Source: Clostridia bacterium (lineage in GTDB: Bacteria; Bacillota; Clostridia; RGIG6154). Taken from it: DNA of 64,000 bases. This document shows positions 12,726 through 60,697 of the stretch, piece by piece. The first letter of the stretch is position 1. Each line of letters begins with the position of its first letter. The notes under the pieces are model-generated. The model did no database searches and was not told the DNA's origin. It saw only the letters and a program-made list of their open reading frames with translations. The DNA lies in assembly GCA_045589295.1 (NCBI GenBank), contig JAZNOU010000005.1:114398-178397 (forward strand), read 5' to 3'. Position numbers and translations under genes: made by a program.

Positions 12726-12736
12726 TAATTGCAATA

Positions 12737-12770
12737 TAAAAAGGGCGAAATCAAATCGCCCTTTTTATTA
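12737..12770 (+). terminator. intrinsic terminator after copA
   Basis: AAAAAGGGCGA-aatcaaa-TCGCCCTTTTT. Confidence 0.8.
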
Positions 12771-12785
12771 TTTTTTAAAAAACTC

Positions 12786-12814
12786 TTTACTTAACAACAA
12801 ATTTATGGTATTAT
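12786..12814 (+). promoter_or_regulatory. host tRNA-Pro promoter
   Basis: TTTACT-17bp-TATTAT, 25 bp upstream of the tRNA 5' fragment at 12840. Confidence 0.6.
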
Positions 12815-12839
12815 ATTACTTGTTTGATAAATCATATTT

Positions 12840-12888
12840 CGAGGTGTGGCTCAGTTTGGTAGTACACCTTGGACACAGAGTATACTCA
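12840..12888 (+). repeat. attL: 5' 23 nt of tRNA-Pro(CGG) fused to element P' arm
   Basis: CGAGGTGTGGCTCAGTTTGGTAG identical to 13118-13140, followed by TACACCTTGGACACAGAGTATACTCA. Confidence 0.88.
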
Positions 12889-12936
12889 ATAAAATTTAAT
12901 AATTATCCATTCATTAACCAAAATGAATGGTATTAT

Positions 12937-12985
12937 CGGGAATTAGCGCAGTTTGGTAGTACACCTTGGACACAGAGTATACTCA
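12937..12985 (+). repeat. second attL-like junction: 5' end of a different tRNA-Pro-like gene fused to the same P' arm
   Basis: CGGGAATTAGCGCAGTTTGGTAG + TACACCTTGGACACAGAGTATACTCA; 37-bp identity with 12852-12888. Confidence 0.8.
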
Positions 12986-13117
12986 TTATATTTTTGTCAC
13001 TACAAAAAAATTCGCCGTTTTTTGACCTTTCGTTCAAAATCGGAGTAGTCATTAAAATGCCTTGCCGTATTTGGCCGACTACAATTTATATTTTGAAAAT
13101 TGAATAAATAATAATAT

Positions 13118-13194
13118 CGAGGTGTGGCTCAGTTTGGTAGAGTACTTCGTTCGGGACGAAGGGGCCGCAGGTTCAAATCCTGTCACCTCGACCA
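13118..13194 (+). tRNA. tRNA-Pro(CGG), intact copy inside the element
   Basis: Cloverleaf, anticodon arm CTTCG-TT-CGG-GA-CGAAG, GGTTCAAATCC T-arm, encoded CCA. Confidence 0.96.
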
Positions 13195-13195
13195 T

Positions 13196-13240
13196 AAAAA
13201 GGGATTGCTATTCAAAAGACGAATAGTAATCCTTTTTTAT
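13196..13240. terminator. terminator between tRNA-Pro and convergent recombinase
   Basis: AAAAAGGGATTGCTATTC-loop-GAATAGTAATCCTTTTTT. Confidence 0.8.
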
Positions 13241-13266
13241 TATATCAACCACTAATATTGATTTAT

Positions 13267-14919
13267 TTAAGAAGATAATGCTTGAAACCCTAATCCGTTT
13301 TCAAACTGTTCTAAGTTAATTTTGAAATTAACTGTTAATTCATACCCTTTCTTTACTGATATACTATCTATAAGATGTGCAACAATAATTTGTTTTGTTT
13401 GTAAATCAGCATTTTCATAAACATCAGCCCATTTGATAATGTTGTTATATTCTTGTTCTATTTCATAACAGTTTTTCTGTAGCTCCTCAAAGTCTGTTTC
13501 ACATCTTTGTACTTGTTCTAATAAAGGCTGTACTTCATTTTTCAATCTCTTTAGAATTTGAAGTAATTCTTTGACAACTTCATCAAATTGAGATGCACTT
13601 ACAATCTTACTTTCTATTGAACGAATTTCATCTTGCTTTTTTCTATACAAATTCTTTGCTTGATTAAGACTACCTTGTATCCGTTTCCATTCTGTTTGAT
13701 ATTTGTAATTGATAAACTCACCGCTTTGCAAGGCTTTTGTACGTCTTAAAAGTTGTTTTATCATATCATCAATTACATCATCAATTTTATATGCTCTATA
13801 TTGTGTTTGAGCTTCATCACTTACACAGATTTTTTCTTTCTTTCCTTCATACAAGCGATTTTCACAAACATATGTCGGTATACGTGGATTATCTTCGCTG
13901 ATTGGTTTATGACCATTTAACCTTGTTGATTTTGTTCGCAATTTAGCTCCGCAACAATCACAATGTATAATTCCTGACACAAGACCTTTTCCAAAAGTGG
14001 GAACATCTGATACATCATTACAAGACATAGATATTTTTTCCTTTATCTCGGTATCTTTTGAACGTCGTTCGCATCTCAATTTTTGCACAAATTCAAAAAC
14101 AGATGGTTTAATTATTTGCAAGTGTGGATGAATTTTAGATACTGTTTCACCACTTTTCAGTACACCTGTATATGAAATATTATCAAGAATACTGTTAATT
14201 GTAGATTGCCCGAATAGTTTTCCTTTTTTATTTTTTATACATCTTCTTGCTAATTCATTGGAAATCTTTCTTGCTCCCCAAAAATTCTCATATGCTAATT
14301 GAAATATCAGTTTGACAACTTCTGCTTCATATGAGTCAATTTCCAAATCGTAGACCTCTCTGTTTTTATGATTAATAGTTCCTTTCTTAACAATCTTATA
14401 ACCATAAGGAATATACCCACCTGCATATAATCCATCTTCAACCATTTGTCCTCGTTTCTTGCGTACTCTTGTACTTGTCTTAGCTGATTCACCAGAGCTT
14501 TGCCAGAAACGGATATAATTTATTAGGTTATCAACATGATTTTCAAACTTTTGTTGTCCTTCGACTACACTCCAAACCTCAACCCCTTGTTCAACAAACC
14601 ATTTTAAGACAAAAGGAGTTTCACTTTCTATACGTCCCAACCTGTCAAACATAAAGACAAGGAGGATATCAAATTCTTTGCGTAGAGCCTCATCTTTTAA
14701 TTCTGTGATTTTATCTCTGTCTTTAGCCGACACCTTGTATCCTGATATGCCTGTCTCAACCTTTTCATCAATTAAAATCCAATCGGGGTGCAATGAAATA
14801 AATTTACGACATTCTCGGCTCTGTAAAGGTATGTCATATTTATTATTTTCTTCATCAACTAATGTTGCACATTGTTTTAATGTACTGTTACGATACAAAG
14901 TCTTTACTCGTTTTTTCAT
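13267..14919 (-). CDS. large serine recombinase (resolvase + recombinase + Zn-ribbon + coiled coil)
   Basis: LYRNST catalytic Ser region, VFMFDRLGR, GGYIPYGY, IIHCDCCG...YVC; RBS GGAGGGG before 14919. Confidence 0.93.
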   Translation of the reverse strand: MKKRVKTLYRNSTLKQCATLVDEENNKYDIPLQSRECRKFISLHPDWILIDEKVETGISGYKVSAKDRDKITELKDEALRKEFDILLVFMFDRLGRIESETPFVLKWFVEQGVEVWSVVEGQQKFENHVDNLINYIRFWQSSGESAKTSTRVRKKRGQMVEDGLYAGGYIPYGYKIVKKGTINHKNREVYDLEIDSYEAEVVKLIFQLAYENFWGARKISNELARRCIKNKKGKLFGQSTINSILDNISYTGVLKSGETVSKIHPHLQIIKPSVFEFVQKLRCERRSKDTEIKEKISMSCNDVSDVPTFGKGLVSGIIHCDCCGAKLRTKSTRLNGHKPISEDNPRIPTYVCENRLYEGKKEKICVSDEAQTQYRAYKIDDVIDDMIKQLLRRTKALQSGEFINYKYQTEWKRIQGSLNQAKNLYRKKQDEIRSIESKIVSASQFDEVVKELLQILKRLKNEVQPLLEQVQRCETDFEELQKNCYEIEQEYNNIIKWADVYENADLQTKQIIVAHLIDSISVKKGYELTVNFKINLEQFENGLGFQALSS

Positions 14920-15067
14920 TGCTCCCCTCCATGAACATTTTTTCCAATAGTAGTTTTCCAACAGAGTTTTCTGCACTAATATTTCTATCTTCTGAAAAAT
15001 TTACTGTGATTGTTAATCCGTTGATAGTCATTTTTGTAGTGTTATCTGATTGAACATTCTTAATCAT
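14888..15067 (-). CDS. 59-aa TnpW-like small protein overlapping recombinase start (not in ORF track)
   Basis: MIKNVQSDNTTKMTINGLTITVNFSEDRNISAENSVGKLLLEKMFMEGSNEKTSKDFVS; RBS GAGGTG. Confidence 0.6.
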   Translation of the reverse strand: MIKNVQSDNTTKMTINGLTITVNFSEDRNISAENSVGKLLLEKMFMEGSNEKTSKDFVS

Positions 15068-15327
15068 CTAACACCTCACCCCCTACACTATCAGACAGAG
15101 GGAGTGAAACTTTTTTATTATATACTGAATCATAAAGAAAGTACACCGTTTTTTTATGATTTATAAACTTTATATTTTGTTTCATAACAAACGCTCCTTA
15201 TCCGTTATAAAGCGTTTGGAATGTATTTTGTATGATTATTTATTATTGTTGAGTAAATACATACCTCAACGTGCTTTAATGTGTATTTAAACATTCAAAT
15301 TTATATTGTTAATAGTTGATTTAGGTT

Positions 15328-15356
15328 ATATGGGCGGTTTTTATACCGCCCATATT
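15328..15356. terminator. terminator after rep operon
   Basis: ATATGGGCGGT-tttt-ATACCGCCCATAT hairpin. Confidence 0.65.
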
Positions 15357-15365
15357 TTCAGAATT

Positions 15366-15806
15366 CTAAATCAACAATCCGTTCTCATCAAAAAGTTTCC
15401 ATGCATTTTCCGAATTTTCTGCTTCGTAATACTCAACAATCGCAGTAATCGGAAAAATGGTTTTTCCATCCTGATATATTTGCACAACTCTTTGTGTCTC
15501 AATTTCAGAGGTAGTCATATAATCAATATCAGAAAAAAACTTCTTACATTTGGCATGTGAACTTACAAACCCAACACCGCTTGGAATATCAAGAGAAAAA
15601 GAATCTACTTCTTGCTCTTTGACATCTCCAACATATGTGATTAGACACGCTCCACCATTGAAAATACATATTTCTGATATGTTTGTATCTTTAATATCGG
15701 AGTTTGTGTCACTTGTTACAACGACATATTCTTTTAAAATTTCGTTATTTAGTTTGTTTTCTTTATCATCAATCAAACTAATTCTTTTTACTTTACTTAT
15801 ATCCAT
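15366..15806 (-). CDS. hypothetical protein (rep operon)
   Basis: 146-aa ORF, RBS AAGGAG, co-oriented with rep. Confidence 0.7.
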   Translation of the reverse strand: MDISKVKRISLIDDKENKLNNEILKEYVVVTSDTNSDIKDTNISEICIFNGGACLITYVGDVKEQEVDSFSLDIPSGVGFVSSHAKCKKFFSDIDYMTTSEIETQRVVQIYQDGKTIFPITAIVEYYEAENSENAWKLFDENGLLI

Positions 15807-15808
15807 AC

Positions 15809-16168
15809 TTATTTATCTCCTTTATTACTTTTTGTTTTAAATATATTTTGATTTTCCCATTCCTCTTTGTGAACATATTCATTTTCAAATCCGATACAAT
15901 TTGATAGAATATGTTCTTCGTCAATGACAGGTTCATAACCAATCATCATTAAGAATTGTTTAATGAACCAATACGGAGCTTTTATTTCAAATCCTTGTAT
16001 CATTCCGTTTTTAACATTCGGTTTGACTTTATATTTCTTCCTCGATTTTGGAACAAATAAATTTTTCTTTACCATTATTCCAGCATAAAAATCATCAATA
16101 TTGGCGGTTGCCATATCATCATAATTTAATCTGAAAAAATTGCAAAAATTATAATTGAAATTTTTCAT
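15809..16168 (-). CDS. hypothetical protein (rep operon)
   Basis: 119-aa ORF overlapping rep 3' end. Confidence 0.65.
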   Translation of the reverse strand: MKNFNYNFCNFFRLNYDDMATANIDDFYAGIMVKKNLFVPKSRKKYKVKPNVKNGMIQGFEIKAPYWFIKQFLMMIGYEPVIDEEHILSNCIGFENEYVHKEEWENQNIFKTKSNKGDK

Positions 16169-17009
16169 AATCTCTATAACCTTTCTTATTATTAAAATAT
16201 TTTTTTGTAATGATATTTACAATGTTATCATCTCTTGAAACCTCATAAGAATCATTTTTGTATTCTATAAGGTTATTTGATTCAGCTAATTTCAAAGCTG
16301 AATCATAAGACATTTGGGACTTTTGAGGGCGGTTTATTTTCCCTCTGCACCTAAACACTTTTTCATATTGCTTATAACAACTTAATCTCATCATTTTTTT
16401 ATTGTTGTGAAATGGATTTAGGTAGTCTATTAATCCGTCAATATCATAAATTGGTCGAAAATCGACTTGTCCATTTTTCCACAATGATTTAATTTCAAGT
16501 TCAGACAAGGTCATTTTTTGGTTGTCACATCTTTTCAATAGCAGATGGATGTGAGGATTATAATTTGTTTTAAATCCTTGATATTCAACGACAAACATAG
16601 CTTTGTATAATTTGTGATTATCAACAAACCGACAAAACCTCCCCCAAAAGTTTTTTATGTCTTTTGTAACAGAATTATCTTCTGCTACTTTTCTGTTGTA
16701 AGTCAGAGTGATAAGCCCCTCTGAACTATCACCATTGAAATTAAGTGATATTAACAATGACAAGTCAAGAAAAGTATTTCGTAATGAATTAATATTCCGC
16801 TTATCATTTAATGATTTGTCAATGGTTTTTATCTCTCCTGTGGTAGTGTTTAAATACTGATTATTAGATATTTTTCTATATCCCACATCCTCACCACTTC
16901 GTTTATGAGATATTAACATATATTTCTCAGAAAAATATACTGTTACAATATCATCTTTATCCAATGGTTTATCCGTTGTTCTTACAACTGAAATTTGATT
17001 ATGGTTCAT
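16149..17009 (-). CDS. HUH-family rolling-circle replication initiator/relaxase
   Basis: motif I LITLTY, VVEYQ...PHIHLLL (HUH), W..G.V.F, candidate catalytic Tyr in LIDYLNP. Confidence 0.8.
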   Translation of the reverse strand: MNHNQISVVRTTDKPLDKDDIVTVYFSEKYMLISHKRSGEDVGYRKISNNQYLNTTTGEIKTIDKSLNDKRNINSLRNTFLDLSLLISLNFNGDSSEGLITLTYNRKVAEDNSVTKDIKNFWGRFCRFVDNHKLYKAMFVVEYQGFKTNYNPHIHLLLKRCDNQKMTLSELEIKSLWKNGQVDFRPIYDIDGLIDYLNPFHNNKKMMRLSCYKQYEKVFRCRGKINRPQKSQMSYDSALKLAESNNLIEYKNDSYEVSRDDNIVNIITKKYFNNKKGYRDYEKFQL

Positions 17010-17180
17010 ATCAATACAATCACCCTCTAAATTTATTTTCTGTCAGTTTAACGCGTCCGTTAAATTGTTCAGAATGTTATGTGGTAATTACCCTGTCTTT
17101 ATAATAGCATAGAATGAAAAATAATAATATTGACAAATTTTCCTTTAAATTATATAATGTAAATGCAGGAAAAATAAGAG

Positions 17181-18167
17181 GTGAAATATATGAATGAAAC
17201 AGAGTTTAAAGGACTATATTATGTTTTTGAATATGATATTGATGCGGGATATATGATTGAATATGTTTCCCCTTGTAATTTGGTTGAATCAAATGGAAAC
17301 TATATTTATGAAGATACTTGTATTGCAGCTAATTTTACAACTTTATTTTTATGTAGCTATGGTTATTTATCGAAAAAATTCAACAATATAGACACCAAAA
17401 TCTTTGACAAGAACTTAAAACAATCACCTCAATTATTAATTATGTTAAAAGACTCTTGTAAAGAAAGTAATATTAAAAGAACAAAAATTGATTTTGAGAA
17501 CATAGAAAAATTTTTAAAAAATACAGATTGTCATAACTTATCAGCTCTAAATTATTTTTGTAGGTTTGCAAACAAAAAAATACCTTCAGCCATTGAAGAT
17601 GTTTATAGAGATATACCTTTATTAAAATCTGACAATAAAGCATTCAACTATTTGAAAGACAATATCAAATATCAAAAGAGTAACGATTTAATAGTTGAAG
17701 CTGAAAACAGATTGGGAACCCAATCCTTTCAAAGAATTTACAAAATACTAGATCCAATGGATTTATTTTTAGTAACTTTAGATATTCTATATCAATTAAA
17801 CTGGACTATAAAGTTTTGTAAAAATTGTGGACTTCCATTTCTAGTTACCAAAAGGAAGAAAACATTATATTGTTCATATAACAACAACTCTTGTAAAATA
17901 GAGGGCAGAAAAGAAAAAGAAAGAAATCGTTATATAAATAATGAGAGAAACAGACTTTACAGAAATATTAATGGAAAATTTAGTTATAGAGCAATACATT
18001 GTAGAGGACATGAAGATGAATGGGAATCTCTTCATTCTATTTTTCTTAATACAATTTATGATAACAAGAAAAACAAAAATATTATTATATGGTTGAGAAA
18101 TATCGATTCACTATTTAATCTTCATAAAACCGAACTTTTTGAATTACCTGACATCAACTCAATATGA
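17181..18167 (+). CDS. DUF6076-like protein with CxxC...C...C Zn-finger
   Basis: IKFCKNCGLPF...LYCSYNNNSCKIEG followed by basic helix. Confidence 0.6.
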   Translation: MKYMNETEFKGLYYVFEYDIDAGYMIEYVSPCNLVESNGNYIYEDTCIAANFTTLFLCSYGYLSKKFNNIDTKIFDKNLKQSPQLLIMLKDSCKESNIKRTKIDFENIEKFLKNTDCHNLSALNYFCRFANKKIPSAIEDVYRDIPLLKSDNKAFNYLKDNIKYQKSNDLIVEAENRLGTQSFQRIYKILDPMDLFLVTLDILYQLNWTIKFCKNCGLPFLVTKRKKTLYCSYNNNSCKIEGRKEKERNRYINNERNRLYRNINGKFSYRAIHCRGHEDEWESLHSIFLNTIYDNKKNKNIIIWLRNIDSLFNLHKTELFELPDINSI

Positions 18168-18455
18168 GTTTATGGTTGTGTATTAATAAAACATTGTGAA
18201 TTTTTATGAAATTAAAGAAATATATATATTTCTTACTATCAGTCTGTGATGTTTTGATGATGAATTTATGTGTTATATACATGGTATATAACATTCATTT
18301 TGTTATACATATTTATATATTTTTAATATAACAATGAGTCACTTGTATCCATATAATAATTAAAGAGATTTTTTAAAGGGTTGCAGTATTTCTGTAATCC
18401 TTTATTATTTTTCATTAAAATAAAATTATAAAATTTATATTTTGGAGATGATATT

Positions 18456-18668
18456 ATGATAAAAGTTATTGAAGATTTACAGAATGACAAAATGAAAAAC
18501 ATTAACAAGAATATTAACACAGTTATTTGCAGATTAAAAACAATACAAGAGAACTTACAATTCACCGCTAAGAAATATGATTTGGAAACATTGTATGACA
18601 TTTTATCCCAGATATACGATGACCTTGGTGATTTTAACATTTCAGTATATGATGAAGACAACGTGTAA
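18456..18668 (+). CDS. small hypothetical protein
   Basis: 70 aa, RBS GGAG. Confidence 0.55.
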   Translation: MIKVIEDLQNDKMKNINKNINTVICRLKTIQENLQFTAKKYDLETLYDILSQIYDDLGDFNISVYDEDNV

Positions 18669-18684
18669 ATTGGAGGTGGTAGTT

Positions 18685-18867
18685 ATGAATAATGAAAAAA
18701 GAATAAACAATTCATTTATAAATGATATAATGTTCGCAAAAGAAGCAATAAAGACTCTACAAGACTCAATATATCGATATTACCCTGAAAACTGTTTTGA
18801 AGTCCTCCCATTACTTCACAAATCTTATGATAATCTTGCATTAACAATTTATCGTTTAACAAAATAA
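18685..18867 (+). CDS. small hypothetical protein
   Basis: 60 aa from ATG 18685 after GGAGGTGG RBS. Confidence 0.55.
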   Translation: MNNEKRINNSFINDIMFAKEAIKTLQDSIYRYYPENCFEVLPLLHKSYDNLALTIYRLTK

Positions 18868-19001
18868 ATTAATATGTTCAAAGTGCATAAACTCACCTTA
18901 CAAACGACTTTATTAACCTTTTTATATAAACCTTATTATTAAAATATTAAGTTTGTTTTAAATGGGTTTGAGTGATTAAAGCATAATTTAAGTATAACCA
19001 C

Positions 19002-19043
19002 AAAAAAGACAGGTTGCCTATCATTGACAACCTGTCTTTTTCC
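19002..19043. terminator. bidirectional terminator
   Basis: AAAAAAGACAGGTTG...CAACCTGTCTTTTT. Confidence 0.8.
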
Positions 19044-19159
19044 TATTTCGATTATGCCAAATTATTCTTCTTTATTATTCCCCACTTTTATTAAAAAGGT
19101 TTCTATTCCCATAATAGTCAGCCCCAACCAGCAAAAGCTCTAATATCCCTGTATAAACA

Positions 19160-19711
19160 TCATCTGTACATTTGAGTTGCAATATCTGTAATCAAAACAC
19201 AAGCAGTCATACTATCCTGAATACTTACAGAATCTGTGCAAATCTCTTGATAATCAAATGTGCTACCATAATACTTTGCAGAAGCCTCAGGGACAATTGT
19301 TTTATCAGCATTTATTGAAAACAGATATACATATGTAAAATCTTCTTTTGTGGAATAATCCTTTGCTGAAGCGATACATACATTAACACTTAATTCTCCA
19401 TAATATTTATCATTATCATAAACGAACTCACTATCTTGAATTATTTTTTCTATAAAACTACTATCTTCTTTTATTTTCTCTTCACTCCATGATGTTGAAA
19501 CCATCGTCATTATTTTGTCATTTTCGTCATTATAAGAGTCCATTTTCTTTACAAAATCAGATACCGTTTTCATTTCATATGAATTATCTTCAGCAAAAAT
19601 TTGATAATCTTCGACCGATGTTATAAATTCTTCATTTGTTACCCCACATCCAGTTACATTAATCAACACCAGCAAACATAGTAACAAAATGCTTATTTTT
19701 TTTGAATACAT
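19160..19711 (-). CDS. putative lipoprotein
   Basis: signal peptide with lipobox VTGC; RBS GGAGGG. Confidence 0.7.
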   Translation of the reverse strand: MYSKKISILLLCLLVLINVTGCGVTNEEFITSVEDYQIFAEDNSYEMKTVSDFVKKMDSYNDENDKIMTMVSTSWSEEKIKEDSSFIEKIIQDSEFVYDNDKYYGELSVNVCIASAKDYSTKEDFTYVYLFSINADKTIVPEASAKYYGSTFDYQEICTDSVSIQDSMTACVLITDIATQMYR

Positions 19712-19727
19712 CCGTAATCCCTCCCTA

Positions 19728-19958
19728 TTATTGTGCACGTCTAACACACTCTTCACAATATGATAAGGTGTTTATTAATGAGCCTCTATTTTTACAACTA
19801 TTATTTGCACACTTATGCAAAGTACAGTAATTAGACCCCAATGGACTTCTTTCAGATGGGCATCCCGAGACGGAACAATATTTTACTCCGCAGCCTGAAA
19901 GCAAAATCAACAGTATTGATAATAATACCATAGTTAAAATAAACGATGTTTTTTTCAT
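19728..19958 (-). CDS. small Cys-rich lipoprotein
   Basis: lipobox LSGC then CSVSGC...CTLHKCANNSC...YCEEC; RBS AAGGAGG. Confidence 0.7.
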   Translation of the reverse strand: MKKTSFILTMVLLSILLILLSGCGVKYCSVSGCPSERSPLGSNYCTLHKCANNSCKNRGSLINTLSYCEECVRRAQ

Positions 19959-19999
19959 ATGTAGTTCCTCCTTAGCTAATAAAATAATTTTATTAAAAA

Positions 20000-21199
20000 T
20001 TATTCGACTTTCTTCATAGTTGCTTGTGTTTTCCCTACAGATTCTATTTCATACTTAAACCCATTTTCTATTCTTACATGATTATCGTATTGAACATTCC
20101 CCATTTTGAATATAATCTTGTCTCCATTCACTCTGTATGGAATTACTATTATATCCTGTCCACGTAGAATATCTGCCTCTTTCGATGTGTCTTCGGGTCT
20201 ATATGTAGAAAAGTCAATAGTAAATGTTCCGTTGGTTTTATATTCCCATATTGAGCCGTCAGGATTTTGCCATTTACCTATAATAGCTTTTTCTAAAGGC
20301 AATTTCGTTTCAGTAGGTTGATATGTTAAATCTTTTTTAGGATATATATAGATGTATCGTTTATTATCATCAGAACTATATGTATAGAAACAAACATTTC
20401 CTACAACAGCAATAGCTTTTTCTTCATTATCAATTATGGATTCTTTTAATACAGACCAAATCTTGTTTTCATAAAGACTTTCATCCAATTCAGGAAGCAA
20501 AGCCATAGAGATAAACTTGGTTTGTTCTCTTATGACATCTTTTTCGCTTGTCGACATATTATTGTATACATCATTATCAATTTTCCAAATTACACTGCTA
20601 ATATGATTTGAAAACTCATCTACGTAAACTCGTTGTTCGCTTATTACTGACGGAAAAAAGTTACGTGTTATCTTTGTACCATTATCATTTGTATAAAATC
20701 CTTCTATAGTTGAACTATAAAACGATGGAATAGTATATTTTGAGCTATTTGTATAATGTTCAGCTTCGACATAATAATTGTAATTGTCAATAAAATCCTC
20801 ATAATCAATATCAAAATACCTTTCACCATTTTCATCAACATTTATGTTAGCAAATCTATCAATACTTTTTGAGGCAGTTTCCAACTTATTGTTTTGTTGC
20901 GACATAGTTGCACCATTGTTATAATTATTCTGACCCACTTCTTTATTAGATTTGTTATTCAATGGTGTATTTAACCTCCACGCAACCAAAGCACATATTA
21001 TCAAAATGCATGTAGTTATTATAGTGTTTATAATCACTCTTTCTTTCTTTTTCCTCAATGCTGACTGCTTATCCTCATTTTTTTCGAGGGTGTTTGTGTA
21101 AGCATACACTTTGCCACATTCCGAACAGATATATCGTCCGTTGTAATTTACTATTTTCCCTTCACACTTAGTACAGATTAAAGATTTAATTTCTTGCAT
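20000..21199 (-). CDS. Zn-ribbon + single TM + extracellular domain protein
   Basis: CTKC...CSEC at N-terminus, one TM helix, C-terminal IIGKWQ (lipocalin/DUF5640-like). Confidence 0.7.
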   Translation of the reverse strand: MQEIKSLICTKCEGKIVNYNGRYICSECGKVYAYTNTLEKNEDKQSALRKKKERVIINTIITTCILIICALVAWRLNTPLNNKSNKEVGQNNYNNGATMSQQNNKLETASKSIDRFANINVDENGERYFDIDYEDFIDNYNYYVEAEHYTNSSKYTIPSFYSSTIEGFYTNDNGTKITRNFFPSVISEQRVYVDEFSNHISSVIWKIDNDVYNNMSTSEKDVIREQTKFISMALLPELDESLYENKIWSVLKESIIDNEEKAIAVVGNVCFYTYSSDDNKRYIYIYPKKDLTYQPTETKLPLEKAIIGKWQNPDGSIWEYKTNGTFTIDFSTYRPEDTSKEADILRGQDIIVIPYRVNGDKIIFKMGNVQYDNHVRIENGFKYEIESVGKTQATMKKVE

Positions 21200-21347
21200 T
21201 ACTTCTCCTCCTTAAACTTTATTCTTAAAAACCTTTCTCATATTATATCACACACTTTTTCGACATGCAACTATTTTTTAGTTCATATTTTGACTATATC
21301 GTTAAATAATAATATCAGTTAAAATTATATTATATGGAGGTGTTAGT

Positions 21348-21521
21348 ATGGATTTTATAATAAAAAAACCTACAAGTTCAAACCGAACAGTCAGAATGCC
21401 TGATGAGTTGATTGACAAAATTGGCAAACTCGCAAATGACAAGGGTATTTCCTTTAATCAGTTAGTTATTCAATGTTGCGAATTTGCATTGGAACACTTA
21501 AACGATAAGGAAAGCAAGTAA
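21348..21521 (+). CDS. ribbon-helix-helix (Arc/YlcI-like) DNA-binding protein, 57 aa (not in ORF track)
   Basis: MDFIIKKPTSSNRTVRMPDELIDKIGKLANDKGISFNQLVIQCCEFAL; RBS GGAGGTG. Confidence 0.8.
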   Translation: MDFIIKKPTSSNRTVRMPDELIDKIGKLANDKGISFNQLVIQCCEFALEHLNDKESK

Positions 21522-21546
21522 TATAACCAGCTCCTTCTATGTGTGG

Positions 21547-22341
21547 TTATATCCAATCTTCAAGTTCAGATACCATCCCTTTTTCAAAGGATTCCTTTTG
21601 AAAAGGGATGGTTTTTTGTTCTGTCTCATTTTCTTTGATTGCTGTAACCTTTAACTCTACTTTTACAGAATCATATTTATTTTCCATAATGACATTTCCA
21701 TAGGAGTCAATTATACCAATCCCATTTTCCCCCTCTGTGATATTGCAAACATTTTGACGGTTAATAACAATCGGATGGTTAAATATTTCCTTATACACCT
21801 TATATTCACCCTCTTGTGGATACAGATATGTACTATATCTTGCATCATAAAATACAGGTCCTTTTTCCGTATTTCCACAAAAGCAAAAACAAGACTCACT
21901 ATATGAGGTATATTCCTTTTTATAAATCTCTTTGCCCAATTCTCCGTATAAGATATACTGATACTTTTCATCTTTGCAATATAAAAACGGAGTTTCAACA
22001 ACAATGTCAACAAAATCCCGTGCTGTGTTTGTTGCTGAATTATAGTATCTTACTTTTTGGTCGTTACTGAAAATCAAATCATGACCGAATGTATCCAGCG
22101 TGTCATACTCACTTTCAGCAATAAAACATACTTTGTCTGTTTCTATTCTGACCGCTCCGATTTTACCTTTTTTATGTATAACAAATACGTTCTTTCCATA
22201 CATAAAAATATTATCATACTCAATTGGTAAAATACATAAGTTGTCAGTAAGGTTTTTAATTCCCATCATCCCGTTATCAGATATAACTTTAATACTGTTT
22301 AAAACTGATTTTTCAAACACATTCCTTCTGCTAAATAACAT
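21547..22341 (-). CDS. WG-repeat-like protein
   Basis: GMMGIKN...ILPIEYDNI, GKIGAV...ESEYD, GIGIIDSYGNVIMENKYD repeats. Confidence 0.6.
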   Translation of the reverse strand: MLFSRRNVFEKSVLNSIKVISDNGMMGIKNLTDNLCILPIEYDNIFMYGKNVFVIHKKGKIGAVRIETDKVCFIAESEYDTLDTFGHDLIFSNDQKVRYYNSATNTARDFVDIVVETPFLYCKDEKYQYILYGELGKEIYKKEYTSYSESCFCFCGNTEKGPVFYDARYSTYLYPQEGEYKVYKEIFNHPIVINRQNVCNITEGENGIGIIDSYGNVIMENKYDSVKVELKVTAIKENETEQKTIPFQKESFEKGMVSELEDWI

Positions 22342-22492
22342 AATATCCTCCCATTTTTATAATTGTAACTGCCATTTTTATAAATATAAACCAAGAGCAC
22401 ATAAATGTACATAGCCAAGTTACAAAAAAGACCGCCTATGTAATTATACTTTTAACTACATAGAAAGTCTTGGACATTTTGTCCACTTTTGT

Positions 22493-24037
22493 TTAATTAG
22501 GAATTATTCTGTTATCTTTTAATAAATACCCTGTGATATCACCTACATCTTCCCAAGTCACGTTTAGTTTTCTTATATTATTATTTATCCAAAATGCATA
22601 CCCTTTAGAGAACATCTCTCCTTCGCATAAGACAAATCCTGTTTTTTCATCATAGCTGATACACCAGGCTATACAATAATTAAAATTATTATAAATCTGT
22701 TCTCCTGCTACACCGATTACACCTTCATTAAGTCCTATTAAAAGTTCTGTTCCACCATCACCATCAAAGTCATAACAGATTATGTCAGCATTTTTTCTTA
22801 AATCATCCGAATAATCCTTAGAATATTCGTATTGGTTGTTAAAACTAAATTTATTACTGTATTTATGACCTTTGCTGTCATCTAACGATACAGATAAAAT
22901 CCCACCATTCAAAGTTATATCTGCATCTACAATAGTATTATTCTTTCCTATTTTTATTTTTCCGTTTTTATTTATATCTTCTAAAAGCAAAATATGTTCC
23001 CAAGGTTGTTGCATTGAGAAAACACAAACATTGGACAACAAGTTGTATTTTTTATACTCAGACTCTTTCTGTCCTTCTAAAAATCCGTAAAATGTTCCTT
23101 CGAAATCCAACTCCTTGTTTTCCTGATTCGTTACCTCTTTTTCCTCAGTTTTTTCAATAACTATATTATTTTTCTCAACCTCTGTTTCAGGCTCGTTTGT
23201 AACCTCAGATTCAGGCACATCTGTTTTAGTTTTCTGTTCTGTCTTTTTATCGTTGCCCTGTTGTGTTTTAACTTCTATTCCATTTTCATAATTCAAAAGG
23301 TTAATTATAATCAATGCTAATACAATTACTGAGAGTGCAAAAATGAAGAGATATTTTAACGAGTTAAGTGTTATCGCTCTTTTTACCGCTTTCACACTTT
23401 GATATCTTTCAGACGGGTCAAGCCTTTTACACTTTTCTGCTACCTTATATAAAAAGCCTTTTATATTTATGTAATCAAGAAGTGTTTTTAAAGTTACACC
23501 AAACGCATATATATCTGTTTTAAAATCAGTAGGAAGCATACCATATTGTTCAATAGGTGCATATCCAAATGTACCTATTGTTTCGGTATCACGTCGTACT
23601 TCTTTTCGGTAAATTCGTGCAATATCATAATCTGTCAACCATATGTGGTCTGATTCATCAATCAGAATATTGTCAGGTTTAATATCTCTATGTATTATGT
23701 CGTATTCGTGGAGTTTATCAAGAGCTGATAAAAGTTGATTAGATATAGAATATATCTGCTTTTTACTTAACTTTTTGCCCTGTGCCATATAATCACTTAA
23801 AGACATACCTTTAACATATTCTTCAATAACTATAGTGTCTGTATCAAATCCGACATAATAAATCTTTGGAATACTTTCGTGATTTATCTTTTTAAGTAAT
23901 TTATATATTTCTCTTTTGTCACCGCTTATTACTCGTTTTAAATATCTCTTTTTGTCAGAGCCTTCCATCAATAAAATTTTTTGACGTTCACTCTGCCTTA
24001 TTATTTCTATTTCCCTTATGGAGTCTATATCGAACAT
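22493..24037 (-). CDS. membrane-anchored Hanks-type Ser/Thr protein kinase
   Basis: IIHRDIKPDNI, DYDIAR, GTFGYAPIEQ, TDIYAFG, TM helix, extracellular C-terminus. Confidence 0.9.
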   Translation of the reverse strand: MFDIDSIREIEIIRQSERQKILLMEGSDKKRYLKRVISGDKREIYKLLKKINHESIPKIYYVGFDTDTIVIEEYVKGMSLSDYMAQGKKLSKKQIYSISNQLLSALDKLHEYDIIHRDIKPDNILIDESDHIWLTDYDIARIYRKEVRRDTETIGTFGYAPIEQYGMLPTDFKTDIYAFGVTLKTLLDYINIKGFLYKVAEKCKRLDPSERYQSVKAVKRAITLNSLKYLFIFALSVIVLALIIINLLNYENGIEVKTQQGNDKKTEQKTKTDVPESEVTNEPETEVEKNNIVIEKTEEKEVTNQENKELDFEGTFYGFLEGQKESEYKKYNLLSNVCVFSMQQPWEHILLLEDINKNGKIKIGKNNTIVDADITLNGGILSVSLDDSKGHKYSNKFSFNNQYEYSKDYSDDLRKNADIICYDFDGDGGTELLIGLNEGVIGVAGEQIYNNFNYCIAWCISYDEKTGFVLCEGEMFSKGYAFWINNNIRKLNVTWEDVGDITGYLLKDNRIIPN

Positions 24038-24108
24038 TTTAGACAACTCCTTGCATATTTCGACAATGTATACTATAATAATTATAGTAAATTCAGGGAG
24101 GATTGTCA

Positions 24109-24528
24109 ATGTATACAATAACAGATGAATTACTAAAAGAACTCAAAAACGCATCAGATATAGAATCGTTTTTCAAATCTCATGAGAATCAGTTTATAAA
24201 CGAAACAACATCAAGTTATCTAAATAAAATGCTCGAATTAAGAAATATAAATATTTCTGCTATTGCAAAAAATTCAGGTACAGGTGAGTATGTATATAAG
24301 ATATTCAGAGGTGACAGAACCGCTTCCCGTGATATTTTAATTTCTATCGCTTTTAGTATGAAATTATCTTTAGAAGAAACTCAGTTGCTACTTCGAATTT
24401 CTAAATTCGCCATACTTGATTCACGTAACAAAAGAGATAGTATTATAATATATGGTCTAACTCACAATTTAACTGTTTTTCAAGCAGATGATTTGTTAGA
24501 AGAACAAAATATGACAACATTAAATTGA
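24109..24528 (+). CDS. XRE-like HTH regulator, divergent from kinase
   Basis: ISAIAKNSG...YVYKIFRGDRTASRDILISIAF...LSLEETQLLL. Confidence 0.75.
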   Translation: MYTITDELLKELKNASDIESFFKSHENQFINETTSSYLNKMLELRNINISAIAKNSGTGEYVYKIFRGDRTASRDILISIAFSMKLSLEETQLLLRISKFAILDSRNKRDSIIIYGLTHNLTVFQADDLLEEQNMTTLN

Positions 24529-24541
24529 TTTATACAAATGC

Positions 24542-25117
24542 TCATAAATTTACCGCATTGTAACAATCTATAATCACTTTTTGAGTAATACCTATATATC
24601 TTAATGTAATTGCACTCGATGAATGATTTAGGAGTTTTTGAAGTGTTTCTAATGGTACATTATTAATGTATCTGTGATATGCCATAGTCTTTCTTAATGT
24701 ATGTGTACCGAAATTACCTTTAATCCCTAAATCCTTTGTAAGTGTTTTAATGATATGATGCAGAGGTCTTACTCCTAAATGACTACCCTTTCGACTTTTA
24801 AATAAAAAATCCTCCATATCATAGTTTGCTAAAGAGTTAAGATATACCTGTATCGCACCTTTAGCATTTTTATTTAATGCGAAATTCCTTGTTTTTCCTG
24901 TTTTCTGTTCTTTAATAGTTACTGTATCAAATATTATATTTCCATCTGTAACATCATTAATTTTTAATGATAATAAATCTCCTGCTCTTAATCCAACATT
25001 GATTCCAACAACAAATATACAGTAATCTCTCTTATTTTCTTTTCCGTATAAATATTGCTTGATTTTGTTAATATCTCTTGTGTTTTTAATTGGTTCAACC
25101 TCTTTTGGTAATGTCAT
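24542..25117 (-). CDS. small tyrosine recombinase (catalytic domain only)
   Basis: GLRAGD, KEQKTGK, HTLRKT, LLNHSS...TLRYIG. Confidence 0.92.
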   Translation of the reverse strand: MTLPKEVEPIKNTRDINKIKQYLYGKENKRDYCIFVVGINVGLRAGDLLSLKINDVTDGNIIFDTVTIKEQKTGKTRNFALNKNAKGAIQVYLNSLANYDMEDFLFKSRKGSHLGVRPLHHIIKTLTKDLGIKGNFGTHTLRKTMAYHRYINNVPLETLQKLLNHSSSAITLRYIGITQKVIIDCYNAVNL

Positions 25118-25429
25118 ATGTTTAATCTCCTTTTTCAGTTGTAACTTAATTTTTTACAATTATATATCGCGTGTGTGAAAAAGTACACCGTTTTTCACAT
25201 AAAGAAAAATATTACCTTTTGCCCATTTAATGAACATAAGGTAATATTCAAAACTTGTTTTTATTAAATTTTAAACCTCACATTTCCCGAAACCATTACA
25301 AGAGTTAAGTTTGAGATGTTTGTGTGAATGATACCTTTTGTTAAAAGGTATTATTCGTTGACAATTAAACATTGAAAGAATCTAAAATTTTTGATATACT
25401 TTATACATAAATGTATAGGAGGAATTTGC

Positions 25430-26347
25430 TTGAATCTTTTCATAATTGGAAACGGATTTGATTTGGCTCACAACTTGCCAACACAATATATGAACTTTAG
25501 AGAATATTTAGAGGAAAGAGATTGGAACTTTCTTATGATGTTAGAAGAAACATATGGATTTTGTTCAGATAGCAACATAGAATATCTAAAAGAATATTTA
25601 TGGCAGAATTTTGAAACCAATTTGTCCTACATCAATGAAACAGAAATAATAGAACTCGGCTCACATATTGACTTAGGATTAGAAGGTGGTGATTTTGGAG
25701 TAGAAGAAACGTTAGATTATTATTGGGAAAACCAATATGGCTACATAAAAAAATTAAATGAATATTTATATTCTTGGATAAATCAAATTGATATTAATGT
25801 TGATAGAAAGACAAATTTTATTAACGAAGAAAACTATGATTTATTCATAAATTTTAATTATACACTATTGTTAGAAGAACTATATAATATAGATTCATAT
25901 GATATTCTCCATATTCACGGCTCCGTATATCCTCACGACACACCGCCGATTATAGGACACGGAGATTATAAGAAAATAGAAGAAATGTCATCAAAAGTTT
26001 CTGAATATTCAAATGTAAATATGGAAAAGGAAACGAGCATATATAATGCTGTTCGTAATTTTTATGAAAGAACTTTTAAGGATGTAAAACACTACATACG
26101 GTGGAACGAGAATTTTTTTGTTAGATTAAAGGAAATTGAACAAGTGTTTATTGTAGGTCATTCCTTTGGTGATGTGGATTTACCCTACTTTAAAGAGATA
26201 TTGTCTTATGTTCCTAAAAACGCACAATGGAATGTATATTATTATAAACCTGAAGAAGAATTATTTTTTAAAGATAAACTGATTGAAATTGGAATTAATG
26301 AAGAGAATATAAAGATGTATCATACATCAACATTTTTTAATATGTAA
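25430..26347 (+). CDS. abiH: AbiH-family abortive infection protein (SIR2-like fold)
   Basis: LFIIGNGFDLAHNLPT, FNYT, HIHG, IIGHG, VGHSFGDVDLPYF; TTG start after AGGAGG. Confidence 0.88.
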   Translation: MNLFIIGNGFDLAHNLPTQYMNFREYLEERDWNFLMMLEETYGFCSDSNIEYLKEYLWQNFETNLSYINETEIIELGSHIDLGLEGGDFGVEETLDYYWENQYGYIKKLNEYLYSWINQIDINVDRKTNFINEENYDLFINFNYTLLLEELYNIDSYDILHIHGSVYPHDTPPIIGHGDYKKIEEMSSKVSEYSNVNMEKETSIYNAVRNFYERTFKDVKHYIRWNENFFVRLKEIEQVFIVGHSFGDVDLPYFKEILSYVPKNAQWNVYYYKPEEELFFKDKLIEIGINEENIKMYHTSTFFNM

Positions 26348-26436
26348 ACTATTATTATATGCAGCTAACGGATTATTACATTTGGAATTATATAACTAAA
26401 GATATGAATAAAAACTCTATCAAGGAGGGAGTACAT

Positions 26437-28065
26437 ATGAATAAAATTGAAAACACATATTATCAAAAATCTAATATCGAATATCTTAAAAATATATACG
26501 GAAAAGAACTTTGGGTTCAAGTCTCTGGACGCAGAGATTTAAATGGAGCCGTTGCAAGCTTTTGGACAGGATTAGTTTATTTGGATGATTTAGATAAAAT
26601 TACTCAAAAATCAGATTGGGAGGCTCATATTGGAACACAGGCTCCTGGTTTTGTCGAATATGGTAATGGTGATATAGAGTATGAGAAAATCTCAGCTTCG
26701 AATATTTATTGTGAACACATTGTAAACTATAGAGATTTTTATGGCATAAAGCCTGAATATGTTGAAGTTGTCGATGAATTTAGACTCCTTAACAATTTAT
26801 ATCATGATTTCCAATCTAACACACTTTACGCAATTAAGGATAATGGAATTTGTGATGAAGTAGTTAAAATTGAAAATAATACGAATGTTTTTATAAAGCT
26901 AAAGTATTTAATCAATTATGCAACGGCTAAACAAATGGCTTTACTACTGTTTTTTGATATTGACCAGCAAATTTCTGGAACATTGGAAAAAAATCAATTA
27001 AAAAAATTTTCTGATAGTCATATTGGTAAAGATATTGTATACAGCATTTGGGGAGATGAAATGGGAGGGAGTAATTATGTATATAGTATCTTAATGGGTA
27101 AAAAGATAATTATGCCTAAACCAATTAATGAATGTGGTTATTGGCCATATGAGAAAGAATATGAATATTTAGACTTTATTATTGGAAATGATGAATACGG
27201 TGAAAACAAAACATTTACATCTAATCCTAACAAATTAGCCAACTACTTCGGTGCAAATCCAGATGCCCCTCACTATTTAACACCTGTTTTCTTTAATAAA
27301 GAAGTATTGCAAAAATACTTATCTTCTGATATTTATAGCATAGAAGATGGTTACTTAAGATGTCGCGGACTTTGGGGCTTAAGAATGGATAACCATCATA
27401 AAGACTATGTAGTTGTTTACTTGGGAGATTTAGGCAAAGAATTACCTTATGAAGAACAACACCATTGGAAAAATTATAATATTGTTTCTGACGATACGAT
27501 TAGTAATGCAAAATTCAAAAGAGATTTCTTAGGAATTCCAAGCAACGCTGAAATTTCTGATTTAAAATTCAAAGCAGATTTTTCATGTTTTCAAAAACAA
27601 TGGTACAATAAATTTGGATGGTATTTATTTTTACCGCTTACCTCTGATGATGAATATAATTTTAGTAAAATACATATTCCAATCGTGAATACACAAGATG
27701 AATTTGACCATTTAGTATTGTCATTAGTAAAAACAATTATTGATTCACTTAACGAAAAAGAAATAAAAAAATTAGTGAAAGACACATTGGATAAAAAGAG
27801 TGGTCAAGAATTAAAAGGAAGTATATCTAAACTTGAAAGATGGTTTGAAGAAAGTAATCTTACAGACTATATTGAACACATAGAATTTTTAAGGAATTTG
27901 CAAAATCTACGTTCTGCCGGAACAGGACATCGAAAAGGAAGCAACTATGATAAAATTTCAAAAGAGTTTGATTTAGATACTGAAAGTTACACAAATGTAT
28001 TTGATTCGATATTAGAAAAGACAAATATGTTTTTAAGTTACTTAACCAATACCTTTTTAGCATAA
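26437..28065 (+). CDS. hypothetical protein with C-terminal HEPN-like motif
   Basis: LRNLQNLRSAGTGHRKG (R-x5-H) in helical C-terminus; RBS AAGGAGG. Confidence 0.55.
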   Translation: MNKIENTYYQKSNIEYLKNIYGKELWVQVSGRRDLNGAVASFWTGLVYLDDLDKITQKSDWEAHIGTQAPGFVEYGNGDIEYEKISASNIYCEHIVNYRDFYGIKPEYVEVVDEFRLLNNLYHDFQSNTLYAIKDNGICDEVVKIENNTNVFIKLKYLINYATAKQMALLLFFDIDQQISGTLEKNQLKKFSDSHIGKDIVYSIWGDEMGGSNYVYSILMGKKIIMPKPINECGYWPYEKEYEYLDFIIGNDEYGENKTFTSNPNKLANYFGANPDAPHYLTPVFFNKEVLQKYLSSDIYSIEDGYLRCRGLWGLRMDNHHKDYVVVYLGDLGKELPYEEQHHWKNYNIVSDDTISNAKFKRDFLGIPSNAEISDLKFKADFSCFQKQWYNKFGWYLFLPLTSDDEYNFSKIHIPIVNTQDEFDHLVLSLVKTIIDSLNEKEIKKLVKDTLDKKSGQELKGSISKLERWFEESNLTDYIEHIEFLRNLQNLRSAGTGHRKGSNYDKISKEFDLDTESYTNVFDSILEKTNMFLSYLTNTFLA

Positions 28066-28083
28066 ATTTTAAAGGAGATACAA

Positions 28084-28656
28084 ATGGAATTTTATGAAAT
28101 TATGATTAACCTATCTATAGGAATAACGGGCGGTATATTTTCTAGTATTATTGTTTCACGTATCTTTTTAATACATTCTTCGCATTCAGAACAATTAGCA
28201 AGAGTGCAAGAGCATTTTGAAAATACTTACAGATTGAGTGGAACATTACTTTTTTATATGTATGCATTTCAAAAAGATGAGAATAATTTTGACGATGATA
28301 CTATTAATCGCTTTAACGACGCATTGCTAAAAGATATACACGAAGTATCAAAACAAGAATGCGAAAAATTTCGGTATATGATTTTCGATGACTTAGAAAT
28401 AGAATTATATAAAATCGCTGTTAATTTAAACGATTTAATGGAAGGAACACTATCATTAAATAAAGTCGATATATCTATAGTAAGAAAACTTCATAAAGAC
28501 TTATTTGATATACAAGATAGATTTAAAAAGTATAAGATAACTAACAACAAGCATTTTGTGACAAAAATAAAAAAGGACAAAATATTACGAATACTCATTC
28601 TTGCTTTGGTTATAATACTCATTTCAACAATAATATCTTGTATATGTGCTAAATAG
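28084..28656 (+). CDS. hypothetical protein with N- and C-terminal TM helices
   Basis: hydrophobic ends, charged helical middle; RBS AAGGAG. Confidence 0.7.
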   Translation: MEFYEIMINLSIGITGGIFSSIIVSRIFLIHSSHSEQLARVQEHFENTYRLSGTLLFYMYAFQKDENNFDDDTINRFNDALLKDIHEVSKQECEKFRYMIFDDLEIELYKIAVNLNDLMEGTLSLNKVDISIVRKLHKDLFDIQDRFKKYKITNNKHFVTKIKKDKILRILILALVIILISTIISCICAK

Positions 28657-28737
28657 AAGTTTATCAATGCAATCAAATATTACAGCTGTATTTTGCTATT
28701 AAAACGCAAAATTATTCATAATAAGAATAATTTACAA

Positions 28738-28818
28738 GAGTTTACTCTATATCCAACGTGGTAGAGTACTTCGTTCGGGACGAAGGGGCCGCAGGTTCAA
28801 ATCCTGTCACCTCGACCA
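28738..28818 (+). repeat. attR: element P arm fused to 3' part of tRNA-Pro(CGG)
   Basis: GAGTTTACTCTATATCCAACGTG then GTAGAGTAC...CTCGACCA; 28759-28818 identical to 13135-13194. Confidence 0.9.
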
Positions 28819-37665: not shown

Positions 37666-37730
37666 CTTTTTGGTGCTCGAAACCGGAATCGAACCGGTAC
37701 GGGGATCACTCCCCACGGGATTTTAAGTCC
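37666..37730 (-). repeat. att direct repeat: duplicated 3' part of tRNA-Leu(TAA)
   Basis: 65 bp identical to 60604-60668; extends from CCA end through the anticodon loop. Confidence 0.95.
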
Positions 37731-60608: not shown

Positions 60609-60697
60609 TGGTGCTCGAAACCGGAATCGAACCGGTACGGGGATCACTCCCCACGGGATTTTAAGTCCCGGGCGTCTGCCAGTTCCGCCACTCGAGC
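60609..60697 (-). tRNA. tRNA-Leu(TAA)
   Basis: GCTCGAG acceptor, CGGGA-CT-TAA-AA-TCCCG anticodon arm, long variable arm, GGTTCGATTCC, CCA. Confidence 0.96.

Follow-up and report, generated by a model that had tools for sequence, protein, structure and literature searches.

Introduction

Integration of phages that bring a tRNA of their own has been described as tRNA-dependent lysogeny for the actinobacteriophages Fionnbharth/K4, Cluster L and Gaia (Guerrero-Bustamante and Hatfull 2024, PMC10865867), in which a tyrosine integrase acts on a core of 8-17 bp and the carried tRNA has its own tested promoter. In the Islander-type islands of tRNA and tmRNA genes, crossover takes place at subsite A, T or J (Hudson, Lau and Williams 2015, PMC4383910). 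For serine integrases as a class, tRNA genes are reportedly not among the targets. All comparisons with published systems given here refer to the available parts of the cited sources. The present analysis concerns a stretch of 64,000 nucleotides from contig JAZNOU010000005.1 of a Clostridia bacterium (the window) and an element of about 16 kb in it (12863-28762), which lies inside the D-loop of the host tRNA-Pro(CGG) gene. The element lies in this gene at the dinucleotide AG, where it was likely inserted by its own serine integrase, and an intact tRNA-Pro(CGG) carried by it (the spare) likely replaces the disrupted gene and acts as a new bacterial attachment site (attB); a probability of roughly 0.85 is given to this reading.

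The element works like tRNA-dependent lysogeny but departs from it in the class of the integrase and in not being a temperate phage. A short core, the lack of a rebuilt tRNA at the junctions and an element-encoded tRNA of the disrupted isotype are common to both. The differences lie in the integrase, here a serine enzyme using AG as a 2-bp core on the D-loop edge, in the non-phage nature of the element, in a spare that in the integrase clade lies 64-181 bp from the crossover without a convincing promoter of its own, and in stacked scars of the left attachment site (attL) in genomes of the clade. An initial annotation of the window, made from the sequence alone, had set this strategy against the norm of tyrosine integrases; the same strategy has already been described with tyrosine integrases (PMC10865867). 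As in the Islander islands, an integrase lies between a tRNA and a displaced tRNA fragment, and tandem arrays occur; unlike them, neither restoration of the tRNA by a fragment in the element's attachment site (attP) nor crossover at A, T or J was found here, and the Islander rule would take the carried tRNA as the left end, which is 255 bp too far inside (PMC4383910).

With SPbeta SprA, phiC31 and TP901-1 (PDB) and with integrative and mobilisable elements (PMC5704250; also the survey PMC10083194), the element shares domain order, a short core, a dyad attP and a disrupted target. The targets reported for those serine-recombinase elements are protein genes called dispensable, and no replacement gene or renewed attB is described for them in the available parts of PMC5704250 and PMC10083194, the word 'tRNA' occurring 0 times in the main text of the latter. 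The Dehalococcoides ssrA islands (DsiB) also direct a serine recombinase to the gene of a structural RNA, the tmRNA, but with direct repeats of ssrA, a CcrB-like and a second recombinase, no split in the D-loop and no spare of the same type (PMC3146451). No comparable case was found in the available parts of PMC5704250, PMC12884075, PMC13626063 and PMC6861422, and no serine integrase with a D-loop tRNA target in the literature searched; Mageeney 2020 (TIGER), Williams 2002 or figure 3J of PMC13626063 may contain tRNA sites of serine integrases.

Element boundaries and the empty-type allele

Of the host tRNA-Pro(CGG) gene, the 5' 23 nt (12840-12862) and the 3' 60 nt (28759-28818) were exact matches to the intact gene at 13118-13194, in agreement with the initial annotation, and the two parts overlap by TGGTAG (tRNA nt 18-23). 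Neither outer junction (on the 12840-12862 side or on the 28763-28818 side) was recognized by tRNA calling. The GC content of the element was 29.3%, versus 36-37% in the flanks. A host promoter, mentioned in the initial annotation, is represented by a promoter-like site at 12786-12814.

In a contig of the same species (run X3, record 18), the tRNA follows immediately on 12332-12838, with 12863-13117 left out, and empty-site genomes keeping 12863-13194, which the initial annotation had named as counter-evidence, were not encountered. The X1, X2, X5 and X7 contigs (same species) diverge from the window at 12863, and X2 runs on as tRNA. In genome G001 a homologous promoter is followed by one intact identical tRNA, and in G002 (same genus) a different element in the same tRNA lies between copA, to its left, and the right flank of the window (31/36 bases). 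By these contigs and flanks the element boundaries hold at both ends, and an empty-type allele exists in the same species. The element body was without coverage in the eight sequencing runs compared, which alone proves nothing.

The attP-like dyad and the crossover point

The element-side arms P and P' form an inverted repeat of 19/23, with 19/25 pairs counted outwards from the AG (12861-12862 and 28763-28764), and the best centre of this dyad is the AG itself, at A21-G22 of the tRNA on the edge of the D-loop. Among 100,000 shuffles none reached 19 pairs (maximum 17); the 19/23 inverted repeat previously noted on the joined ends is real, and the crossover placed earlier in TGGTAG was narrowed to AG only, the overlap TGGTAG being present as stated. 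The site has the form found with large serine integrases, a dyad attP of about 50 bp centred on a 2-bp crossover. An in-register dyad (19-20/25) was found in 6 of the 8 genomes in which both junctions were compared, and the pairs out of 25 were 19, 20, 19, 20, 19, 20 and 14 for the window, G403, G337, G068, G134, G073 and G871, respectively. In G416 there is an intact attP (21/25), behind which come the spacer and then the 5' half of a spare joined to another arm.

Across the integrase clade, 19/22 attL units (18 clusters) depart from the tRNA straight after AG, and in 8/26 clusters with a right attachment site (attR) the junction with it falls precisely at AG. Three rows of attR, with matches of 16-23 bases, proved to be self-matches and were set aside. 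The exits of attL after AG and the joining of attR at AG together fix the 2-bp core. A core of this length would be too short for a tRNA to be rebuilt at either junction; the earlier statement that a whole gene is carried because the junction does not restore the tRNA agrees with the lack of any junction called as tRNA.

An ordinary tyrosine-integrase island at 13195-28818, bounded by the 60-bp tRNA 3' repeat and moved by a recombinase of 191 aa, with the upstream 5' halves as unrelated relics, would fit the Islander signature of a full tRNA, a 3' fragment and an internal tyrosine recombinase (PMC4383910), and the 191-aa recombinase is common to two sister elements. Such an origin is scarcely credible, as the repeat begins in the D-loop, away from the anticodon, T-loop and junction subsites, a single dyad of P and P' extends over both outer junctions, the carried tRNA of G403 differs from that of its host, the short recombinase has no match in the whole G337 element, and the same-species contig without 12863-13117 already contradicts it.

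The site of L075/L183 (G309:C156:4247-4430) was tried as a free attP and rejected (9/25). It is a hybrid of the arms of two elements, with the P arm of one, AG, the P' arm of another and then a spare tRNA-Asn, and suggests an insertion into an attR.

The serine integrase and the type of element

The integrase combines Resolvase, Recombinase and zinc ribbon domains with a catalytic serine, as large serine integrases do, and its gene points towards the carried tRNA. Ser12 and Cys320/323/352/365 are invariant or nearly so among relatives; the zinc ribbon scored 23.4 bits, just below the cut-off of 25.3. The short open reading frame (ORF) overlapping the integrase start may be TnpW-like and is a candidate for the directionality factor. 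A small TnpW-like ORF just before the integrase was also seen in many loci of the clade. No virion family was found among the 19 ORFs of the element (PHROGs), and no MOB or pore family among its proteins, a rolling-circle-type initiator (PF23343) being present. The element resembles a small mobilisable island that carries defence cargo rather than a phage.

Origin and expression of the carried tRNA

The intact tRNA-Pro(CGG), which the initial annotation had placed about 255 bp inside the left end, was called by both ARAGORN and Rfam, starts 255 bp inside 12863, and no other intact Pro(CGG) was called in the 1.54-Mb assembly. Genome G403 contains a whole sister element of 11.8 kb with an integrase 90% identical, and the host halves there differ from the carried tRNA at 6 positions, which make up 3 compensatory pairs. 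Since the carried tRNA of G403 is unlike that of its host, this sister element establishes, at the level of sequence, that the spare is element-borne.

In the loci of the clade, the spare follows the preceding crossover at 64-181 bp (median 104). A promoter of its own was not accepted (3 promoter-like sites versus 2.7 expected). The sole convincing promoter-like site is that of the host (12786-12814), and no plus-strand terminator-like site is listed between it and 13118; the carried tRNA is likely read through from the host promoter.

The assembly also has Pro(TGG) and Pro(GGG) tRNAs, CCG makes up 1988 of 10953 Pro codons (crude count), and CCG is wobble-read by tRNA-Pro(UGG). The carried tRNA might then be mainly a landing pad, or give a mild translational benefit, with the host viable without it; besides these two tRNAs and the codon count, the Ala(GGC) subclade without a spare by pattern (see below) speaks for this, and Pro CGG, Ala CGC, Ala GGC and Val CAC are isoacceptors absent from many Firmicutes. 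It is nevertheless an unlikely account, because compensatory changes keep the spare folded, and elements with Pro(TGG) and Asn(GTT) targets, for which no substitute tRNA is known, have attL and carry spares as well (G337, G068, G134, G073, G871, G259 and G860).

The second attL and probable reuse of the spare

Behind the first attL unit (attL1) a second one (attL2) was found, which the initial annotation does not mention; in it the 5' half of a carried tRNA-Pro is joined over the same AG to another P' arm, identical to the first. The two units contain a direct repeat of 37 bp (12852-12888 and 12949-12985, period 97), and the tRNA 5' half of attL2 differs from that of the host at 6/21 positions. 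Since 12849-12959 of the window is 95.5% like the left end of G403, where the corresponding tRNA is intact, the half-site of attL2 can be read as a G403-type carried tRNA cut at AG. The unit is likely a scar left when a second element inserted into a carried tRNA, and points to the reuse of such a tRNA as attB; the earlier proposal that the spare regenerates a fresh attB gains sequence support from it (12937-12984).

Two or three attL units stand before the spare in the window and in L022, L025, L078, L116, L137, L273 and L309. The likeness between units ranges overall from 45% to 100%, with unlike units in the arrays of the window (45%), L116 (51-98%), L078 (70%) and L137 (75%). Forms that have no attL but possess a host promoter, whole tRNA and integrase were found in L031, L042 and L125. 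Both the stacked and the attL-less forms could be explained by one excision from a tandem, with the outer attL and the inner attR as its partners.

It was also considered that, after the same insertion, attL2 came not from staggered excision but from a tandem of this chromosome that collapsed by homologous exchange, or from slippage involving the short tRNA 5' repeats. In L022 (99%) and L273 (100%) the near-identical units may be copies made by slippage, and the bodies of sister elements are 84-89% alike, which is sufficient for homologous exchange; slippage, however, cannot give the differing tRNA halves and unrelated spacers of the window (45%), and the attL-less form predicted by staggered excision does exist. 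Collapse or slippage is held to be the less likely account, with homologous collapse keeping some probability.

The spare is also a target of other integrases (L021, L093, L123, L128, L131, L133 and L135), the elements that occupy spares being of the anticodon-loop and 3'-end kinds.

Survey of the integrase clade

The sample of the clade consisted of 132 loci, chosen by protein likeness and not by tRNA context, and was grouped into 95 clusters at 95% identity, 12 of which end too soon, leaving 83 informative clusters. D-loop halves or a tRNA beside the integrase were found in 59/83 informative clusters versus 34/2000 random positions of this genome. By the automatic rule, 18 of the 83 were assigned to attL with a carried tRNA, 29 to a D-loop 3' half after the integrase, 4 to a tRNA without attL, 4 to other attL and 4 to a full tRNA after the integrase; in this tally L082 and L152 are mislabelled as too short and L021, L093 and L141 as none, L064 was removed as a duplicate, and four later loci were judged by hand only. 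The targets were Pro(CGG), Pro(TGG), Ala(CGC), Ala(GGC), Val(CAC), Asn(GTT) and Lys(CTT). The junctions follow the serine integrase clade, and the target anticodon largely tracks the integrase subclade in a quick tree of 89/95 rows (6 short clusters omitted).

Members of the clade occur mainly in Clostridia and their prophages, and also in IMG/VR records. The family was present in 12/399 and 13/397 genomes of the class and in 5/401 of the phylum; in INPHARED there were 3 records, all unannotated, and in PLSDB a single relic-like copy that has only attR. For the Pro(TGG) and Asn(GTT) targets, attL with a spare was not found in G359, G408, G409, G411 and G412, intact tRNA-Asn copies without attL being present in G408 and G412, and the other end of the element was not found in G359, G409, G411, G413 and G414.

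In the Ala(GGC) loci L098, L099, L100 and L096, there is a strong promoter-like site ahead of attR, and the P arm opens with a G run able to pair as an acceptor stem; the L099 junction was called as a tRNA by ARAGORN. These loci may rebuild an odd tRNA at attR. In L152 (9770-11671) and L164, a tRNA-Ala(GGC) lies upstream of the integrase on the opposite strand, and in L152 a P-like arm is present on both sides of the integrase gene. Several decayed 5' halves of tRNA-Asn with short AT-rich hairpins stand before attL in L277, L282 and L342 (G134, G073 and G359, respectively). On plasmid pRUMAL02 of the cultured strain Ruminococcus albus 7 (L337:20001-21750), a clade integrase is followed by a D-loop 3' half of tRNA-Asn, and no attL pattern was found on this plasmid.

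Other elements and features of the window

In the same genus, an element with a tyrosine integrase (475 aa) shows the same split-and-replace layout at the anticodon loop of tRNA-Pro(CGG), with units of 202 bp. A tyrosine-integrase element that splits this tRNA in the anticodon loop was noted in L044:3208-6544 (G003), L045 (G002), L049 (G017) and L256 (G405). It has a whole spare about 200 bp inside and stacked attL units of 202 bp, and one copy sits in the spare of a serine element (L021). The window also contains a second, ordinary-looking island of about 23 kb (37671-60697). The coordinates of all features are given in Table 1.

Table 1. Positions of the features of the host locus, the element and the second island in the window.
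Feature	Position	Strand	Evidence or remark
Terminator-like hairpin 3' of copA, host flank	12736-12768	+	copA by family match
Host tRNA promoter-like site, -35/-10 with TG extension, 9/12	12786-12814	+	Also upstream of intact tRNA in G001
Host tRNA-Pro(CGG) 5' half, B arm of attL1; crossover AG 12861-12862	12840-12862	+	Sequence match
P' arm of attL1, element left end	12863-12887	+	Repeat and dyad analysis
Spacer 1	12888-12936	+	92% like spacer before intact carried tRNA of G403 element
attL2: 5' half of G403-type carried tRNA-Pro, same AG, second identical P' arm	12937-12984	+	
Spacer 2	12985-13117	+	No match in any other locus compared
Intact carried tRNA-Pro(CGG)	13118-13194	+	ARAGORN and Rfam
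Long hairpin between carried tRNA and integrase, likely two-way terminator	13197-13240		
Large serine recombinase, 550 aa, intact ORF	13267-14919	-	Resolvase, Recombinase, Zn ribbon
59-aa ORF overlapping integrase start	14888-15067	-	Conserved in 5 sister loci
Rolling-circle-type initiator	16149-17009	-	PF23343
Ser/Thr kinase, cargo	22493-24118	-	
Short tyrosine recombinase, 191 aa	24542-25117	-	Catalytic domain only
AbiH-family abortive infection gene, cargo	25391-26347	+	
P arm of attR, element right end	28738-28762	+	Dyad analysis
Crossover AG and host tRNA 3' part, B' arm of attR	28763-28818	+	No tRNA called at junction
Second island: exact 60-nt 3' repeat of tRNA-Leu(TAA)	37671-37730		
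Second island: tyrosine integrase, 384 aa	59342-60496		
Second island: tRNA-Leu(TAA)	60609-60697		

Discussion

In the proposed mechanism, the integrase would recombine the P/P' dyad with the tRNA gene over the 2-bp core, with no junction rebuilding the tRNA, and the spare, placed about 100 bp past P' in the direction of the host gene, would be read from the host promoter. A later element would insert into the spare to give a tandem, and excision between the outer attL and the inner attR would yield a circle retaining an attL scar (the window form) and leave an attL-less element (the form of L031, L042 and L125).

Several results weigh against this reading. The whole empty site is spanned by no single contig, the X3 contig ending within the tRNA, and no circle junction of the element was seen in the compared runs, which are without the element body. 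The G860 junctions are without an in-register dyad (7/25), and the attP-like site of L168 is out of register (6/25). In attB the zinc-ribbon motif is expected to lie closer to the centre than in attP, by 5 bp; the offset peak of 0.41-0.44 at offsets 5-6 was barely above the null maximum of 0.40, and no peak was found for the 3' arm. By the automatic rule 24/83 informative clusters are without the feature, and the Ala(GGC) subclade (L095-L100) is without a carried tRNA by pattern in 3/3 records searched. Pro(CGG) may be dispensable, given the presence of Pro(TGG) and Pro(GGG), and the model would have to account for attP and the spare not deleting each other on a free circle.

A wider proposal is put forward tentatively, at somewhat less than even odds. 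The clade would be specialised on the near-invariant A21-G22 and retuned to at least 7 isoacceptors; its attP would be a promoterless cassette of an arm plus a spare tRNA, which borrows the host promoter and renews the target at each insertion. The stacked attL scars would then be an ordered record of invasion, and the short spacing between attP and tRNA would prevent self-deletion of the circle.

If the insertion is as described, the D-loop edge would be a fourth crossover subsite beyond the three catalogued, and island finders would misplace the ends of such elements. Serine integrases that target conserved tRNA genes and renew their target could become integration tools for repeated use in gut Clostridia. 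The stacked units would support, from genomes, the idea that elements insert in tandem into a carried tRNA, a matter of speculation in PMC10865867. Integration that depends on a tRNA, described for actinobacterial phages with tyrosine integrases, would be extended to the serine integrases of Clostridia.

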